Positions 1,266 to 55,792 of a stretch of 64,000 nucleotides of DNA are shown in pieces. Position 1 is the first letter of the stretch. Every line of letters starts with the position of its first letter. Under the pieces are notes generated by a model. It was given only the letters and a program-made list of their open reading frames with translations, ran no database searches and was not told the DNA's origin. Source of the stretch: Candidatus Cloacimonadales bacterium. Lineage in GTDB: Bacteria; Cloacimonadota; Cloacimonadia; Cloacimonadales; JAIOQZ01. The translations under genes and the position numbers were made by a program. The stretch covers positions 1,984,001-2,048,000 of the forward strand of contig CAXXTU010000002.1 of NCBI GenBank assembly GCA_963662655.2, written 5' to 3'.

Positions 1266-1295
1266 AAACCCCGAAGCAATTGCCTCGGGGTTTTT
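1266..1295 (+). terminator. Intrinsic terminator after clpX (possibly bidirectional)
   Basis: AAACCCCGAAGCA-AT-TGCCTCGGGGTTT hairpin followed by a T run and preceded by an A-rich run. Confidence 0.85.
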
Positions 1296-1326: not shown

Positions 1327-1451
1327 CGGCAGCAGATTCGTTCGATCTTCCACGAAATCGTGGTGTTTCACAGCCTTGCCACATTACGCTCATTTCATTC
1401 CAAGGCTGTGGTATATCCACATTTCGTGGAAGATCGTGCGAAGATGCGCCG
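1327..1451 (+). ncRNA. Structured ~125-nt hairpin element, copy 1 (candidate ncRNA or folded-DNA repeat)
   Basis: Long inverted repeat with a 16-bp perfect stem CGATCTTCCACGAAAT/ATTTCGTGGAAGATCG and a 10-bp inner stem CACAGCCTTG/CAAGGCTGTG; same architecture and loop motifs as 55667-55792. Confidence 0.6.
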
Positions 1452-1454
1452 GAG

Positions 1455-2712
1455 CTACGTCTTGAGCTTCTTCTTCTCCGCGGCCGGGAACAGCACGTTG
1501 TTGAGGATCAGGCGATAGCCCGGTGAATTCTTGTGAAGCGCCAAAACGGTAGGAGGATCGCCAACCCGATGCTGGTAATCCTCGGGATCGTGTCCACCGT
1601 AGAAAGTGAAGGTTCCCTTGCCGAAATTACCGTGCAGGTATTTCACTTCATCCGCACCCGGAACTTCCCCCATGACAATCACACTCTTCTTTACATTTTC
1701 CTTGTGGAAGGTCGTCGTCTGGCCAAGGAATCCGTTCACGTAGTTCGTATGGCATTGGGGTCAGCATGGTGGGAACAGGATCGTACTTGGCGGAGAAGTC
1801 GAACAGCAGGAAATAGTCCTGCTCGGCGCCACGCAACTGTGCATAATCGCTGGCGTCCAATGAGGAGAATTCGTAGATGTTCGGATCCGTTATCAGCCGG
1901 AAATCCTTGAATGCGAGGCATCGACTGAAATCCAGCTTACTCTGGTAGCCCGGTTCGGGCGGCGTGCCGTCGTAAACCACATCGACGATGTCGATATCCT
2001 TCGCGGCAAGCGCGATATCGAACGTATCGGTCGCCGCACACATCGCGAAGAGGAAACCACCGTTGCTTACGTACTCACGGATCGTTTCTGCCACCGCGTG
2101 CTTGAGTTGCCAAACGGTCGTAAAACCCAACTGCTCCGCCATCTCTTCATTCTGCCGTACCTCTTCCTGATACCAGGCGGCATTGCGAAAGCTTCGGTAG
2201 AATTTTCCATACTGCCCGGTAAAATCTTCGTGGTGGAGGTGAACCCAGTCGTAATCCTCCAGCTTGCCTTGCAAAACCTCTTCGTCCCAAAGCAAGTCGT
2301 GATCGATTTGGGCATAGTCGAGCGCGAGCCGGACGGCATCGTCCCAGGGCTGCGAGTTTGGTGGAGCATATACCGCTATTTTCGGCTCTTTTTCCAGAAC
2401 CACGACATCCATGTTCGCTCCCTCGATCTCCTGCAGGATGGCTGCATACTGTGGTGTACCGATCTTCTCGTAGGATACGCCCCGAACACGGCACAAACTC
2501 TCGATGGTCGAAGACTCCGGAATAATCCAGGAGCCGGCCCGGTAGTTCAAGAGCCATTTGACAACGAGACCTTCCTTCAATCCCTCGAAGGCAACGCCAT
2601 ACGCCTTTAAATGATCCGTTTGGACATCGTCCATCGGGATCAGAATTTCCGCGTGAATTACCGAACACACACACGCTAACAGCAACATTGAATATATAAA
2701 TCTCAATCGCAT
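1455..2712 (-). CDS. Conserved secreted hypothetical protein (FCB-group family often labelled asparagine synthetase B-like); split by one frameshift
   Basis: Signal peptide MRLRFIYSMLLLACVCSVIHA, motifs HLKAYG, WLLNYRAGS, HLHHEDFTGQYGKF, FAMCAATD, GGHDPEDYQH. Removing one base from GGGG at 1757-1760 joins ORFs 1648-2769 and 1455-1739 as PTMLTQCHTNYVNGFLGQT. Confidence 0.75.
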
Positions 2713-2849
2713 ATTATACCTCAAATTATTAGGACAACTATCTGCTTTGTGTTTCAGGACACAAGTCATTTATGTAACGATTTCTGTATTGAATTGTAAC
2801 AACGCGAATTGGCGTGACTCGCCGCGTAAATCTCGTATCTTCGATTTCC

Positions 2850-6142: not shown

Positions 6143-6313
6143 CTTTTTACATCCTATAATATATTGCTGCGCGGGATCAGATTGGTTCGATCCGCCCGAA
6201 AGCGTATTATATTCACGGCGTATGCCGTGGTGTTATACGGTGAGGGCGAGCAAAGCGGGATCGGGACAATATGACCCGCGCTGACCATATTCGTAACAAC
6301 TCTCTCGCATCCC

Positions 6314-49862: not shown

Positions 49863-51062
49863 CTATGAATAAAACGGCTCCACGACTCGATCCAGCACGC
49901 CATGCAGTTTCGAGATCGCAACACCGTAGTTGGTGACATCCACATGCCGTCTCGTGCATTCTCGCAGCCTTCGCATCATCTCCATGCGGTTCATCATGCA
50001 GCCGCCGCAGTGGATAACCAAAGCGTACTTTTCCAGGTCTTCCGGGAAGTCGTGACCGGCTACCACCTCGATATCGAGGTCTTTTCCGGTGTACTGCCGA
50101 AGCCAACGCGGGATTTTCACCCGGCCAATGTCGTCCGACTGCACGTGGTGCGAACACGCCTCCGCGATGAGCACCTTGTCGCCATCCTTCAGGTCGTCGA
50201 TCTTCTTCGCGCCGTCAACGAACACATCCAGGTCGCCCTTGTAGCGCGCAAAGACGGTGGAGAAAGTCGTCAGCGGGATATCGGGAGTCACGTCGCCAGA
50301 CGCCTTGAGGATCACCTGCGAATCGGTGACCACAAGGTCGGGCTCCCGCTTGAGCTTGCGGAGCGCATCCTCCAGCTCGCGTTCCTTGACGATCACGCCG
50401 ATGGCGTCGTTGTCGAGGATTTCGCGCAAGACCTGCACCTGCGGAAGGATCAAGCGCCCTTTTGGCGCTGCGAGGTCGATGGGCGTGACAAGGACAACCA
50501 GGTCCCCGGCACGGATGAGGTCGCCGATGAGCACCTTCTCGTCCAGGTATTCGCCCGGAACGATGGTGGCCATCATCTCTTTGAGCTCGGTCACACCGTC
50601 ATCGTTGACGCTCGAGACGCCCTTCCAGGGGATTCCGCGCGTCTCGCAGAACTCGATGTCCTGCGCTTTTACGTCGCTCAGATCGATCTTGTTGAACGCC
50701 ACCACGAACGGGATTTTCAATTCCTGTATCTCGTCAACGATCGTTTTCACACTTTCGTCGATTCCATCCTGATCCACGACCACGATGGCGATATCGCTGC
50801 GGAAGAGGATGCGACGGGTCGATTTGACGCGCTTTTCGCCCAGCTCGCCCACGTCGTCGATGCCGGCGGTGTCGTAGATGGTCACCGGCCCAATGGGGAG
50901 CAGCTCGTAGGGCTTGGCGACAGGATCGGTGGTGGTTCCGGCGGTTTCCGAAACGATGGCGATATCCTGTCCGGTGAGGGCGTTGATCAGCGAGGATTTA
51001 CCCGCGTTGCGCTTGCCCACGATGGCGATGATGAGTCGTTCTCCGCGCGGCGCTTTAGCCAT
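49863..51062 (-). CDS. hydF: [FeFe]-hydrogenase maturation GTPase HydF
   Basis: GKRNAGKS, GTTTDPV, DTAG, NKID, APKGRLILPQ, EACSHH and HCGGC cluster ligands; real start MAKAPRGER at 51062. Confidence 0.96.
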   Translation of the reverse strand: MAKAPRGERLIIAIVGKRNAGKSSLINALTGQDIAIVSETAGTTTDPVAKPYELLPIGPVTIYDTAGIDDVGELGEKRVKSTRRILFRSDIAIVVVDQDGIDESVKTIVDEIQELKIPFVVAFNKIDLSDVKAQDIEFCETRGIPWKGVSSVNDDGVTELKEMMATIVPGEYLDEKVLIGDLIRAGDLVVLVTPIDLAAPKGRLILPQVQVLREILDNDAIGVIVKERELEDALRKLKREPDLVVTDSQVILKASGDVTPDIPLTTFSTVFARYKGDLDVFVDGAKKIDDLKDGDKVLIAEACSHHVQSDDIGRVKIPRWLRQYTGKDLDIEVVAGHDFPEDLEKYALVIHCGGCMMNRMEMMRRLRECTRRHVDVTNYGVAISKLHGVLDRVVEPFYS

Positions 51063-52110
51063 TGTTCCTCCTCTTGAAGTGCGGTGAATCGCCCCATTCG
51101 CCGTAGCGGATCGATTCTCCCACCGACTGGATGCGCCCTTCGAGGCACGAGCGGCACATGCTGGCGTTTTCGTCCACGCAGGGCTTGTCCTCGTAGAGCA
51201 GGTATTGCTTGCGGTATCTGGTGTCGGTGATGACTGGCATGATAATGTTTGCACCAGCGCGTAGTCCGTATTCACGTCCCTTGGGATCGAGCGCTTGCAG
51301 CGCTGTTGTGGAGGCGATATTCACGTCTTTCAGGAAGATGCGGGTGAGCGCGACCATGCGCAGCGCCAGGTCGAGCTGACGCTCCTTGTTGAAGTCAGGC
51401 ATCTTCTCAGCCAGTGGGGTGTCGTGGTGAACAACGTACGGCCCCATACCGATCATGTCGATGTCCTTCTCCTTGAAGAAGAGGATGTCGTCGGCGAGGT
51501 CTTCGGCGGTCTGACCGGGCAGTCCGATCATGACCCCGGTTCCCACCTGATAGCCGATCTTTCTGAGATCCGCCAGGCTTTGCAGCCGCAGGTCGTGCTT
51601 GTGATCCGCCGGATGCAGGGTTTTATACAACTCTTCGTTAGAGGTCTCGATGCGCAGAAGATAACGATGTGCGCCGGCATCGAACCAGCGCCGGAAAGTC
51701 TCTTCCGTCTGCTCGCCGAGCGAAAGCGTGATGCCGAGGTTCCACTGCTCTTTGACCTTTTTCAGGATTCTTTCGACGAATGCGACGAACTGCTCGTCGC
51801 TACGCTCGCCGCTCTGTAGCACCAGGCTGCCGTAGTTGGCCTCGAAGGTCCATTTCGCCATATCGAGGATTTCCTCCTCGCTCATCATGTAGCGCTCGAC
51901 CTTGCCGTTGCTCTTGCGGATGCCGCAGTAGAAACAGTCCTTGGTGCAGATGTTGCTAAACTCGATGATGCCGCGGAAATAGACCACGTTTCCCACGTTC
52001 TCGAGCTTGATCCGGTAGGCTTCCTGAAACATCCGTTCGAGGAGCTTTTCGTCCCCGGTGGTCAGCAATTCCACCAAGTTGTCGCGGGTCAGGTTGTTGA
52101 AATCTATCAT
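51055..52110 (-). CDS. hydE: [FeFe]-hydrogenase maturation radical SAM HydE
   Basis: RGIIEFSNICTKDCFYCG, LQSGE, YLLRIET, GMGPY, GANIIMP, YLLYEDKPC. Confidence 0.95.
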   Translation of the reverse strand: MIDFNNLTRDNLVELLTTGDEKLLERMFQEAYRIKLENVGNVVYFRGIIEFSNICTKDCFYCGIRKSNGKVERYMMSEEEILDMAKWTFEANYGSLVLQSGERSDEQFVAFVERILKKVKEQWNLGITLSLGEQTEETFRRWFDAGAHRYLLRIETSNEELYKTLHPADHKHDLRLQSLADLRKIGYQVGTGVMIGLPGQTAEDLADDILFFKEKDIDMIGMGPYVVHHDTPLAEKMPDFNKERQLDLALRMVALTRIFLKDVNIASTTALQALDPKGREYGLRAGANIIMPVITDTRYRKQYLLYEDKPCVDENASMCRSCLEGRIQSVGESIRYGEWGDSPHFKRRNNG

Positions 52111-52115
52111 AATTG

Positions 52116-53480
52116 TCAGTACCCCAGTTTGTACATGTTCTTGGGCGCCAGAAGGTCTTTCAGTTCCTCCATCGGGATGCTTTCGCTTTCGCTGATATGC
52201 TGAAGCACGGATACGCCCTTCTCCGCGGCCTCCTTGATCAGCGTTTCAACCTTGTGATAACCGAGTCGCGGAACCAGCACCGTCGCGATCAGCGGACTGC
52301 GCATCAGGTTGTCGCGGCACGATTTCTCATTGGCCTCGATGCCTTCCACACAACGTTCGCGGAAGATTTTCGATGCGTTCTGCAGGATTTCCAGCGACTC
52401 CATCATGGTGTAGGCGATCAGCGGGTAGAACTGGTTCAGCTCGAGCTGCCCGAGGCTGGTCGCGTGCGTGACGAGTGAGTCATTGGCCATAATCTTCAGT
52501 GCCGCTTGCGACACCGCCTCCGGGATTACCGGATTGACCTTCCCGGGCATGATGCTGCTCCCCGCCTGCATGGGAGGGAGCGTGATCTCGGAGAGTCCGC
52601 CGTGCGGTCCGCTGGCGAGAAGCCGTAGGTCCGAAGCGATCTTGAAGAGGTTCACTGCGTATGCCTTGAGAATGCCCGAGACCTCGGCGATGGCGTCGAG
52701 GTTCTGCGTGGCATCGACGAGGTTCTCGCCGCGCGCGATGTTCAGACCGGTGATGCGGCGCAGCACATCGGTCGTCTTGAAGATGTAGTTGCGCGGCGCA
52801 CCAAGACCGGTTCCGATGGCGGTTCCGCCGAGGTTGATCACCTTGATCCGCTCGCGGCATTTGAAGATACGCCATCTGTCGCGCGCGATGGCTTCCGCGT
52901 ATGCGCCGAACTCCTGCCCGAGCGTCATGGGGACCGCGTCCTGAAGCTGCGTCCTGCCCAGCTTAACCACGTCGTGGAAATGCTGCTCTTTCGCCTGAAA
53001 CGCATCCTGCAATTTCGCCACGTCGTTTTCCAGCGCGCGGAGTTGCTTGAGAAGCGTCACCACCACCGCGGTGGGGTAGACATCGTTGGTCGACTGGTGC
53101 ATATTCACATCGTGCAGCGGATGGATGTCGTCTCCGGCAAGCCGCGCGATCACCTCGTTCATGTTCATGTTGGTCGATGTGCCGGCGCCGCCCTGCAGGG
53201 CGTCGAGCGTGAACTGCTCGAGGTGCTTTCCGTCCGCGATTTCGCGACACGCGCTCTGGATCGCCATACCTTTTTGCTTATCCAGGTATTCCAACTCTGT
53301 ATTGGAGATGGCGCACGCCAGCTTCACTTCTGCCAGCGACCTGATGAAGAGCGGATGGCTCCGCAGTCCCGATATCGGGAAGTTCTCGTGCGCACGGGCG
53401 GTGTGGACGCCATACAGCTTGTCCGAAGGGATCGGCATCTCGCCCAGCGCGTCGCGTTCTATACGATAATCGTTGGTCAA
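52116..53480 (-). CDS. aspA: Aspartate ammonia-lyase
   Basis: QGGAGTSTNMN, QSTNDVYPT, GRTQLQDA, GSSIMPGKVNP fumarase/aspartase signature; probable TTG start after GGAG. Confidence 0.9.
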   Translation of the reverse strand: MTNDYRIERDALGEMPIPSDKLYGVHTARAHENFPISGLRSHPLFIRSLAEVKLACAISNTELEYLDKQKGMAIQSACREIADGKHLEQFTLDALQGGAGTSTNMNMNEVIARLAGDDIHPLHDVNMHQSTNDVYPTAVVVTLLKQLRALENDVAKLQDAFQAKEQHFHDVVKLGRTQLQDAVPMTLGQEFGAYAEAIARDRWRIFKCRERIKVINLGGTAIGTGLGAPRNYIFKTTDVLRRITGLNIARGENLVDATQNLDAIAEVSGILKAYAVNLFKIASDLRLLASGPHGGLSEITLPPMQAGSSIMPGKVNPVIPEAVSQAALKIMANDSLVTHATSLGQLELNQFYPLIAYTMMESLEILQNASKIFRERCVEGIEANEKSCRDNLMRSPLIATVLVPRLGYHKVETLIKEAAEKGVSVLQHISESESIPMEELKDLLAPKNMYKLGY

Positions 53481-53493
53481 AAGCCGCTCCCGA

Positions 53494-54900
53494 TTAGAAG
53501 TAGAGGTCGCGTTCACCGTCGCGGACGCGTCCCATGCGTTTGAGAATCTCAGCCTTCGTACCTTCGTCGGCAACCTTGGTCAGTTCGTCGTCCAGAAGCG
53601 CCAGGCCAGCTTCCTTCGTTCCGCTCGAGGCGTAATCCTCGATGTATTCGAGGAACGTGAGGATGGCGTTCGGCGTGCAATAGCGTTTCACGAAGCCCGG
53701 AATGGCGAATTCCATGAAGTGTTCGCCGGTTCTGCCAAGTCGATAACACGCGGTGCAGAAAGACGGGATGTATCCGCTATGAGCGAGCTCGCCGATCACT
53801 TCGTCCAGCGAACGGTTGTCCATCAGGGCAAACTGGCTCTTGCGGAACGATCCGGCGTCCTTGGCGGCGTAGTCGCCGATGCCGATACTGGAACCGGCGT
53901 CGATCTGCGAGACGCCGTAGCGCAGCACCTCGTTGCGAATCTCGATCGGCTCACGCGCGGTGAGGATCATGCCGGTGTATGGCACCGCCAGCCGGATGAT
54001 GGCGACAAGCTTCTTGAAAGCGGCGTCGGACACGGCGTTGGGCGGCGCTTTGGTGAAATCGGTGTTGTTGGCCAGCTCGATGCGCGGGAAGGAGATGGTA
54101 TGCGGCCCGATGTTGAAGCGATCTTCGAGATGAATCGTGTGATAGAGCAGTCCCATGACCTCGAACCGCCAGTCGTAGAGCCCCATGAGCGCGCCGATGC
54201 CGAGGTCGTCGATACCGCCTTCCATGGCGCGATCAAGTCCGTAGAGCCGCCACAGGAAATCGCTCTTGGGGCCGCTCGGGTGCATCTTCTGATAGGTGGG
54301 AAGGTGGTAGGTTTCCTGGAAAATCTGGTAGGTGCCGATCCCGGCCTCTTTCACGAGCTTGTAGCCTTCCACATCCAGAGGAGCCGCATTGATATTCACG
54401 CGCCGGATCTCGCCCTTGCCCTCTTTGGTCGCGTAGACCTTCTTCACGGTGTCGTGGATGAACTGCGCGTCGTAGCGCGGGTGCTCGCCGTAAACAAGGA
54501 TCAGTCGCTTGTGGCCCTTGGTGACCAGCGAACGTACCTCGGCTTCGAGCTGCTGCATGGTGAGCGTGTTGCGGTCGGCTTCGGTGTTGGAGACGCGGAA
54601 GCCGCAGTAGACGCAGTCGTTGATGCAGTCGTTGCCGATATACAGTGGCGCGAAGAGCACGATGCGATTACCGTAGATGCGCTCCTTCAGTTCGTGCGCT
54701 CCCTCCTGAATCTCGTGAATCAAATCCTGATCCTCCGCGCCGATAAGGCAGGCGACCTCGTCCGGATCGAGACGGTTCTTGTCGAGCGACTTCTGGATGA
54801 TATCTCTCACGCGGATGCGATCGGGATTGCGGTATTCTTCAAGTAACGATTCGATCTTCCCGGTTGGGATAAACGATTCGGGTTGCGGTGTGATTTTCAT
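53494..54900 (-). CDS. hydG: [FeFe]-hydrogenase maturation radical SAM HydG
   Basis: FAPLYIGNDCINDCVYCGF, FQETYH, PHTISFPR, C-terminal CTACYR...C auxiliary cluster motif. Confidence 0.96.
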   Translation of the reverse strand: MKITPQPESFIPTGKIESLLEEYRNPDRIRVRDIIQKSLDKNRLDPDEVACLIGAEDQDLIHEIQEGAHELKERIYGNRIVLFAPLYIGNDCINDCVYCGFRVSNTEADRNTLTMQQLEAEVRSLVTKGHKRLILVYGEHPRYDAQFIHDTVKKVYATKEGKGEIRRVNINAAPLDVEGYKLVKEAGIGTYQIFQETYHLPTYQKMHPSGPKSDFLWRLYGLDRAMEGGIDDLGIGALMGLYDWRFEVMGLLYHTIHLEDRFNIGPHTISFPRIELANNTDFTKAPPNAVSDAAFKKLVAIIRLAVPYTGMILTAREPIEIRNEVLRYGVSQIDAGSSIGIGDYAAKDAGSFRKSQFALMDNRSLDEVIGELAHSGYIPSFCTACYRLGRTGEHFMEFAIPGFVKRYCTPNAILTFLEYIEDYASSGTKEAGLALLDDELTKVADEGTKAEILKRMGRVRDGERDLYF

Positions 54901-54925
54901 CGATTCTCCTTTATCTCTTTTAATA

Positions 54926-55174
54926 TTATACTTTCAAGGTGTTCGCTTTGGCGGTCACAGAGGGTATCTGCCCCAGCTTGCCCGTTAACGCGCCCAGCTC
55001 GTCGGTGGTCATTTCCGTTACGAGAAAGATGACGGCGCAGTTCTTCTCGGGCATGGGGTATCCAACCCTCAGGTGGATGTATTTGGCGTAACTGTGTAAT
55101 AGTTCACTTACGGATTGGAAAGCTTTTTCGCGATCGTATACGGTAATTGAAATCAAGTGGTTTCGTTTTTGCAT
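54926..55174 (-). CDS. TM1266-family iron-only hydrogenase system putative regulator (ACT-like)
   Basis: 82 aa, V.ELLH.Y...I..R.G.P, LGALTGKLGQI; position upstream of hydG. Confidence 0.88.
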   Translation of the reverse strand: MQKRNHLISITVYDREKAFQSVSELLHSYAKYIHLRVGYPMPEKNCAVIFLVTEMTTDELGALTGKLGQIPSVTAKANTLKV

Positions 55175-55666: not shown

Positions 55667-55792
55667 GCCGTGAGAAGATTCCCCCGATCTACCTTTTCAC
55701 CGTGGTGTTCCACTTCATTTTTTTACGCTCGATAGTCCCAATGATGTGGTATATCCACGTTGAAAAGGTAGATCGGGCGAAGATTCCACGGC
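55667..55792 (+). ncRNA. Structured ~126-nt hairpin element, copy 2 (candidate ncRNA or folded-DNA repeat)
   Basis: 17-bp stem CCCGATCTACCTTTTCA/TGAAAAGGTAGATCGGG; shares GTGGTGTTYCAC, TTACGCTC, GTGGTATATCCAC and GCGAAGAT with copy 1. Confidence 0.6.

Follow-up and report, generated by a model that had tools for sequence, protein, structure and literature searches.

A genus-specific family of replication-oriented, modular hairpins in Candidatus Cloacimonadales, likely a gene-less mobile DNA

Most high-copy hairpin repeats of bacteria are tied to RAYT proteins and have not been described as replication-oriented or as exchanging parts. The bcr1 repeat has a fixed orientation relative to replication.

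Among described systems, REPINs and their REP-RAYT relatives come closest to the element reported here. As characterised in the cited studies (PMC3116915, PMC3333891, 10.1101/2021.07.10.451892), they share with it a copy number above 100, an extragenic location, a long hairpin with conserved ends, a paired variable spacer with compensatory changes, conserved stem mismatches, tail-to-tail doublets (seven here), vertical persistence in one lineage and the lack of an identical master copy. The element departs from them in several respects, however. Its arms alone fold barely better than shuffled sequences (-6.9 vs -5.2 and -7.9 vs -5.7 kcal/mol), meaning that there are no REP subunits; the GTAG/GTGG or CGTC foot tags are found at its ends in at most 7/113 copies, while its inner GTGG covaries; no cognate RAYT flanked by the element was found; and it presents two separate non-canonical modules, a strong replichore polarity, exchangeable loops and a form with a flipped core. 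The double-foot REPs of TnpA-Y1 subclass 2.4, as outlined in the cited classification (PMC6006769), start with GT[AG]G and end with C[CT]AC around a hairpin, as does the inner part of the element; in the latter, however, the tetranucleotide covaries, sits inside a longer stem and never occurs without the outer module.

Other systems are more distant. Integron attC sites, solo sites included, resemble the element in being imperfect hairpins with an extrahelical base and a central bubble, in a terminal structure that varies and in their leading-strand-template bias, going by the features given in the cited work (PMC5371416). Unlike them, the element is dispersed singly among housekeeping genes and has a much longer stem; its end logos and alignment show no GTT/AAC triplets, and neither cassette arrays nor an integron integrase were found (integrases judged by eye). 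ERIC (127 bp) and bcr1 (155 bp), compared here by their published description (PMC3184786), are similar in size, in intergenic location near gene 3' ends and in compensatory changes, but the TA flanks of the former and the 5-bp direct repeats of the latter were not found at the element. In contrast to MITEs, which have terminal inverted repeats and are DDE-mobilised, it lacks a target-site duplication and its outer stem varies, so that no sequence-conserved terminal inverted repeats exist. Elements derived from IS200/IS605 have distinct end hairpins and a fixed target tetra- or pentanucleotide, whereas no fixed flank motif accompanies the present hairpin, no TnpB was found in eight family genomes and no TnpA in the source genome. 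The element works like a REPIN and yet fails REPIN membership; it is filed under none of the systems compared here.

Anatomy, size and distribution of the family

The window, that is, the whole stretch of 64,000 nucleotides analysed, corresponds to C2:1984001-2048000 of the source genome (G000; 3.81 Mb, 99% complete, from an uncultured bacterium), with G001, G002 and G003 being relatives of the same genus. A previous sequence-only reading had pointed out two structured elements of the window, described as a twin pair 54 kb apart. Both hairpins are real, possess the claimed order of parts and fold as described, with RNA minimum free energies of -69.7 kcal/mol for copy 1 and -67.6 kcal/mol for copy 2 (z = -12.2 and -11.1 against dinucleotide shuffles, none of 200 shuffles folding as well as either copy). 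They do not form a pair, though, but belong to a family of 133 loci, with a third copy in the window itself. The features are as follows.

1266..1293, listed on the - strand (a T-run follows on the + strand too): hairpin resembling a terminator, outside the element, that separates clpX from copy 1
1327..1451, + strand: copy 1, standard type A with a pyrimidine-type terminal loop; 107 bits
1332..1347, + strand: 5' arm of the outer module of copy 1, comprising the 3-bp stem, GA from the tandem GA/GA and TT from the T.G pairs
1348..1358, + strand: copy 1 variable spacer stem, 5' arm, with its partner at about 1421-1431
1360..1371, + strand: copy 1 inner module X, GTGG-TGTT-NCAC
1379..1400, + strand: terminal loop of copy 1, belonging to one of the four or five loop classes that are exchangeable
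1408..1420, + strand: copy 1 inner module Y, GTGN-TATAT-CCAC, with an invariant bulged T
1432..1447, + strand: copy 1 outer module, 3' arm
6166..6284, + strand: third copy, flipped-core type B; 31 bits, E 1.3e-7
6204-6216, then 6227-6238, + strand: units of the third copy, Y-like followed by X, in swapped order relative to the standard
55667..55792, + strand: copy 2, standard type A with a GTTCGATAG-class loop; 129 bits
55674-55689, 55702-55713, 55746-55758 and 55771-55786, + strand: modules of copy 2

From the outside inwards, the element, a rod-shaped imperfect palindrome, is composed of a variable stem of 5-7 bp, a bulged A and an outer module (3 bp and a tandem GA/GA, then 4 bp, two T.G pairs and 5 bp), followed by a variable spacer of 9-12 bp, an inner module in which GTGG-TGTT-NCAC is paired with GTGN-TATAT-CCAC, a stem of at least 8 bp and a terminal loop that ranges from 2 to ~300 nt. 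The two modules, about 16 bp apart, are non-Watson-Crick and near-invariant. TGTT is present in 112/113 and TATAT in 113/113 copies of a set allowing two mismatches per module, with copies differing by up to 40% elsewhere. When this set was enlarged by four motif-variant copies and relieved of one misassigned copy (116 in total), the inner motif was found changed in 5/116 copies, three sharing a common variant and two being private (the raw count of 17/1044 is inflated by an alignment register slip in three variants), against 6.8% of cells changed in the outer module. The foot of the inner part reads GTGG/CCAC in 81/116 copies, GGGG/CCCC in 13 and AGGG/CCCT in 6, among others; this tetranucleotide covaries freely, and no inner part orphaned of its outer module was detected. 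The tandem T.G pairs are retained in 98/113 copies and one G.T pair is invariant. A GNA/GNA 3x3 loop occurs in 47/113 spacers, the same stretch being fully paired in 51/113, and in two copies the outer module has been converted to a perfect palindrome.

The proposal that structure is kept by compensatory change was borne out: in a 54-copy alignment 91% of the cells are paired and 35/47 pairs are changed on both sides, a pairing that none of 500 shuffles equalled and that fell to 33-45% in slid controls, although this comparison does not amount to a formal probability because the structure was drawn from the same sequences and the copies are related. A sibling of copy 1 (G000:C2:464249) illustrates the pattern, with a core 96% identical and a different outer stem that is paired in both. 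What did not hold was the conserved terminal-loop motif: the octamer TTACGCTC (at 1384 and 55723) is present in only 4/116 copies and, since the two window copies fall in different loop classes (pyrimidine vs GTTCGATAG), it is not a family motif. Target-site duplications were sought through direct repeats in the flanks of 116 copies, which are at the level of shuffled controls, and no fixed flank motif was found.

The family is dispersed, as had been supposed. The 133 hairpin loci of G000 were obtained with nhmmer (profile from 70 copies, E <= 0.01), the same profile giving no locus in the reversed genome, and an independent arm-based scan retrieved 113 complete standard (type A) copies, 9 flipped-core (type B) copies, one mixed and some partial, against no complete copy in its control. 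A covariance model built from 54 copies revealed homologues in all four genomes of one Cloacimonadales genus, with at least 35, at least 39 and at least 61 copies in the three relatives (82 candidates scored per genome). The same model gave no match in 37 other relatives and, in a 151-genome sample of the phylum, matched three genus members only, the family being absent from all of the ~185 non-genus genomes searched. An exact-pattern scan of species genomes returned 18 stretches, 16 of which are from Ca. Cloacimonadales and contain full copies, while the two from outside this group were dismissed as chance. Viral contigs yielded no family match, and in metagenomes a loose pattern gave at least 118 stretches with a full match in 0 of the 80 inspected. 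No description of the hairpin family was found in the open-access literature searched. The family is apparently undescribed, genus-specific and unusual in its polarity, constraint and modularity. Two copies on a single 38-kb contig of G002 (G002:C10) have G000-type ends, unlike the other copies of that genome, and may result from transfer or from binning contamination.

Placement, polarity and the nature of the folded molecule

The copies are dispersed and intergenic; going by the gene calls of a crude caller, they are enriched in convergent spacers (56/125 vs 164/1160) and avoid divergent ones (10/125 vs 278/1160). They lie near the 3' ends of genes that are functionally unrelated and mostly housekeeping (judged by eye), and both orientations are present in these 3' regions. 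A link to terminators was discarded, with figures of 20 and 16/113 vs 36/300 gene ends indicating a weak excess at most. From origin to terminus the distribution is roughly even, these two points having been placed in G000 from its GC skew, together with a cluster of DnaA boxes and with motif matches that resemble parS and dif sites. An identity of the element with dif or parS was rejected, as both sites (identified by their motifs) are located elsewhere in the genome and differ from it.

Several observations concern the surroundings of individual copies. The gene that ends beside copy 1 (window 1456-2769, - strand) is seemingly frameshifted, its ORF stopping at 1648 while homology with relatives extends to about 1454; one base at 1757 is missing in related contigs, and either a homopolymer assembly error or a pseudogene is possible. 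Elsewhere the window holds a long response-regulator/histidine-kinase/chemotaxis cluster (22606-48614) and a hydrogenase-maturation cluster (49866-55174; HydF, radical SAM genes, TM1266-like) enclosing a fumarase/aspartase-like lyase gene. In the rest of G000, one IS, judged by eye to be ISL3-like, has 12 copies, 3 of which lie within 70 nt of an element 3' end (C2:1506271, 1950524 and 3484913; p ~0.01). Three phage-packaging-like genes (terminase, portal, by eye) at C2:1733421-1737085 are placed between two outward-facing elements, one core-deleted and the other with a four-fold tandem insert, and at C2:834364-836503 an element separates two genes that by eye are umuD-like and umuC-like, the latter being followed by a copy whose core is deleted.

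The folded strand of the element has the sequence of the lagging strand, that is, it is situated on the template of the leading strand, in 89/118 copies of G000 (p = 3e-8), and this polarity is kept in all four gene contexts (36:14, 29:8, 14:7 and 10:0). It reaches 26/26 copies in G001 (9 from 800 kb read through and 17 from 20 stretches mostly around known matches, with skew measured per stretch), 9/9 on contig C17 of G002 and 14/18 in 400 kb of G003. Further repeat families of G000, taken as controls, gave a mixed picture (37:38, 37:18, 10:5, 5:8 and 9:2): most are less biased, but two (37:18 and 9:2) are likewise skewed. Relative to co-directional genes the folded strand is antisense in 37 cases and sense in 21. 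In every gene context, the orientation of the element follows replication, not transcription. The wrong-way copies are not explained by local inversions, since only 3 of 29 lie in reversed skew. The suggestion of a gene-linked sRNA is not sustained by these data, the neighbours being unrelated and the orientation following replication in every transcription context; that of a guide-like RNA with variable loop flanks fails because the variable segments pair with each other and are not free for targets.

That the + strand is the folded one was confirmed for both window copies, in which it folds better than the - strand with RNA energies. Across the family RNA folding favours it in 115/116 copies, with a mean advantage of 14.4 kcal/mol with RNA energies and 4.1 with DNA energies, and G.T mismatches prevail over A.C ones (63:33, p = 0.003; 14:16 in a 40-copy subset). 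A likeness of the inner loop to that of the hairpin ribozyme did not lead to an identification, as Rfam gave no such match, and 6S RNA was equally set aside, with the 6S RNA of the genome located elsewhere and no match to the element. Rfam as a whole supports the view that no known family is involved: no match reached the gathering score in the window, and copy 1 and eight other copies gave only sub-threshold matches to generic hairpins, mostly miRNA precursors.

The short forms found in relatives bear on the choice between DNA and RNA. Of 19 such forms (related copies, not independent), 17 close with a GNA triloop, including GCA and a T-A-closed GAA, and, among triloop classes, GNA alone is reported to form DNA mini-hairpins of extraordinary stability, which also occur at phage and plasmid priming sites (both as stated in PMC13037366). 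The GNA triloops of a 169-nt form (21/34 triloops) had been taken as further evidence for DNA and were withdrawn, because the insert is a repeat in its own right that occurs outside the element too.

It is distinctly unlikely, in our assessment, that the element acts as RNA, whether as a hairpin serving the processing or stability of 3' UTRs (RNase III-type stem, 4x5 internal loop) or as an sRNA spread by fork-primed reverse transcription. The strand preference in RNA folding, the retained T.G pairs, the invariant G.T pair, the overall excess of G.T over A.C and the position near gene 3' ends would suit such a role, and ERIC and bcr1 repeats are reported to be co-transcribed or transcribed (PMC3184786). 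On the other hand, orientation tracks replication in all gene contexts with antisense copies outnumbering sense ones, the short forms end in GNA triloops and not in GNRA/UNCG tetraloops, no promoter-like site was found near copy 1, the G.T preference vanishes in the 40-copy subset, and the only reverse transcriptase of G000 has an internal stop while G001 has none. Moreover, covariation alone is no proof of RNA function, because copying from arm to arm and exchange between copies can produce it. A DNA element is favoured over an RNA, in line with the branch of the sequence-only reading that envisaged a single-stranded DNA recognition site or a non-autonomous element, and the family is likely a new one of gene-less mobile DNA rather than an RNA gene.

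Apparent exchange of parts, and turnover between species

No two copies are identical, and only 6/119 have a neighbour at least 95% identical, yet subfamilies up to 97% alike are found in unrelated flanks. There is almost no correlation between outer stem, spacer and inner part (Mantel r 0.07-0.10), and near-identical spacers are combined with different loop classes in 24/54 pairs, one loop class (25/113) being a distinct family of tandem repeats that nests in the loop of the element. In type B the halves of the inner module have changed places without their sequence being inverted; single-unit deletions are seen between X and Y, and in most of the seven tail-to-tail doublets one copy is standard and its partner flipped or divergent. 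Copies thus appear to swap parts. Quasi-palindrome template switching, in which one arm is copied from the other, is known from yeast; such arm-to-arm copying would yield paired spacers and perfect-palindrome outer modules. G000 holds further intergenic repeat families as well, in clusters of 78, 57, 15, 14, 12 and 11 loci (for example at C2:1914601, 1897504, 2139600, 184464 and 2611835).

This mosaic structure could also be expected of attC-like sites used by an unrecognised single-strand recombinase, in which exchange at the inner module would swap loops, flip the module and move gene blocks. The long imperfect stem, the extrahelical base, the unpaired central bubble and the variable terminal structure agree with it, as do the mosaic modules, the flipped type B, the presence of A and B types at one orthologous site, the single-unit deletions between X and Y and a folded-strand bias to the leading-strand template like that noted for sedentary integrons (PMC5371416). 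However, there are no cassette arrays, the neighbours are mostly housekeeping genes, the tyrosine recombinases found resemble XerC, XerD and phage integrases (by eye), no GTT/AAC pair is conserved across the stem, and synteny breaks are not significantly enriched at elements in comparison with long element-free spacers (33/43 vs 144/225, p = 0.12). We regard this explanation as very improbable. Gene order in the genus is itself heavily shuffled (G000 vs G001 and G003), the 144/225 long element-free spacers that are synteny breaks being counted at ~75% nucleotide identity.

Comparison between species showed both persistence and turnover. At orthologous sites the element is often kept, with an identity equal to or above that of the neighbouring genes and with in-place compensatory change, while at other sites with flanks 88-95% alike the spacer or the entire core has been replaced, including type A for type B. 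The spacer orthologous to that of the third window copy holds a standard copy in two same-genus genomes. Of eight G003 copies in spacers syntenic with G002, five are common to both genomes and three are absent from G002, one of these being missing along with ~200 nt of other repeats. In the orthologous clpX loci, the spacer after clpX has no element in G001-G003, and that after the ORF of the hydrogenase-maturation operon has none in G002, but these spacers have diverged too far for the ends of the element to be fixed from them. The genome comparisons revealed no precise empty site for the element by itself, nor did shallow sequencing-run contigs, which are partly identical to the window, possibly its source and not independent of it. 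At G002:C17 (~177200-195500) what looks like the right arm of an element carries the insertion of an 18-kb island, which has TG...CA ends and a 5-bp duplication, and two tandem elements occupy the corresponding site in G003.

Such persistence raises the alternative of structure-defined chromosomal sites used by the host, in which a host protein would bind the folded modules during replication (for instance to restart forks, for priming, as a shield against hairpin nucleases or to organise the nucleoid), purifying selection would keep the copies, which would be oriented with the replichore, and spread would be secondary. In its favour are the near-invariance of TGTT/TATAT across copies up to 40% different elsewhere, the orthologous copies kept between species, often above flank identity and with compensatory change in place, the roughly even spread from origin to terminus, the uniform polarity in G001, the fact that the largest population is in the genome devoid of Y1 and, by analogy, the priming sites already mentioned at which GNA mini-hairpins are reported (PMC13037366). 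Confinement to one genus, widely varying copy numbers (at least 35, 39 and 61 vs 133) and the turnover of sites between species speak against it, no candidate protein was found, and gene conversion among copies can mimic purifying selection. Overall, host use of this kind seems unlikely.

Proposed mobilisation and significance

The sequence-only reading had recommended listing the recombinase, HUH or GIY-YIG nuclease and reverse transcriptase genes that accompany the element, and none of them fits as a partner. No Y1 transposase was detected in G000 by Pfam, NCBIfam or tblastn. The relatives carry Y1 genes with REPs of their own, and the element was not present within 1.5 kb of these genes at any of 12 loci (12 of 17 matches examined). 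It does lie just 3' of a REP motif that also flanks Y1 genes in 7/9 cases in G002 and 11/18 in G003, but this adjacency is read as a later, secondary clustering because it is rare in G001 (3/26) and absent in G000 (0/123). Among other candidates, IS110 is absent from G000, G001 and G003, TnpB from the eight family genomes, and a Y2 search found nothing, its control also giving no signal. The sole reverse transcriptase of G000, with its internal stop, and the lack of one in G001 speak against this enzyme class; by eye, the tyrosine recombinases resemble XerC, XerD and phage integrases, the GIY-YIG nuclease showed no adjacency in 12 loci, four matches to an HUH-motif regular expression are seemingly unrelated, and no neighbour gene fits (by eye).

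Some of the genes met in this search deserve record. The reverse-transcriptase gene (G000:C2:981409-982608) is AT-rich, with one in-frame TGA, and defence-type by eye. A 137-aa Y1 gene with its own REPs directly follows an xerC-like gene in G001 and G003, the position after the xerC-like gene in G000 (C2:1848570-1848800) being taken by a different long hairpin and no gene. G000 also contains a prophage that is Mu-like by eye, in several near-identical copies, at C1:11558-20595 and at C2:412-9911, 475000-509000, 2730000-2758000 and 3290000-3322000.

The interpretation that we prefer, and on which our judgement is evenly poised, is that of a REPIN-like, non-autonomous family of single-stranded DNA hairpins whose mobiliser acts in trans and is probably HUH-type. 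The element would spread as non-autonomous mobile DNA, recognised as a folded single strand at the replication fork by an enzyme that would most likely be a RAYT/HUH-type nuclease, which G000 would have lost. The protein would read the two modules by shape, which may be why stem sequence is free while pairing is constrained. Copies whose folded strand lies on the exposed lagging-strand template would be excised or lost more often, and this biased loss would leave most copies on the leading-strand template, whereas ectopic recombination and arm copying would reshuffle outer stem, spacer and loop and generate much of the covariation. A genome with no Y1, the most copies and a weaker polarity than G001, as is G000, would fit such a purge model, as judged from four genomes. 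Survival of REPINs after loss of the RAYT is described in the cited study (10.1101/2021.07.10.451892), and a loss of mobilisers is plausible in G000, because it has several other repeat families, also with no Y1 gene.

Several points weigh on the other side of this mobile-DNA reading. Besides the failure to find a cognate enzyme or a precise empty site, the secondary look of the REP adjacency, the small + strand advantage with DNA energies and the mixed polarity of the control families, the genome lacking Y1 is the one with most copies. In addition, IS200/IS605 elements act on the lagging-strand template, according to the cited account (PMC3333891), whereas the folded strand of the element is mostly on the leading-strand template. 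Finally, selection on resident copies is indicated, since the inner motif is preserved far better than would be expected if the copies were decaying relics, and in several orthologous copies conservation equals or exceeds that of neighbouring coding DNA. A more general possibility, which we entertain only tentatively, is that of a replication-polarised signal or recombination site defined by its structure, in which a host protein reads the folded single-stranded DNA and drives an exchange among folded copies that swaps loops and spacers and flips the core. The two pseudo-symmetric modules would then be putative binding sites, with selection acting at each resident copy.

In summary, the family is large, its nine core bases (TGTT/TATAT) are almost fixed, and G000, which has the most copies, yielded no partner enzyme. 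If the family is mobile DNA, this implies that the replication fork is where a mobiliser or a process purging copies operates; if the copies are sites used by the host, they would represent a new structure-based chromosomal signal; and were a host protein or recombinase to read them, the family would stand either as a counterpart of attC that is dispersed and free of an integrase or as a new class of motif in chromosome architecture. For RNA-motif searches it holds a warning, namely that very strong covariation can arise from a DNA repeat with copied and swapped arms.
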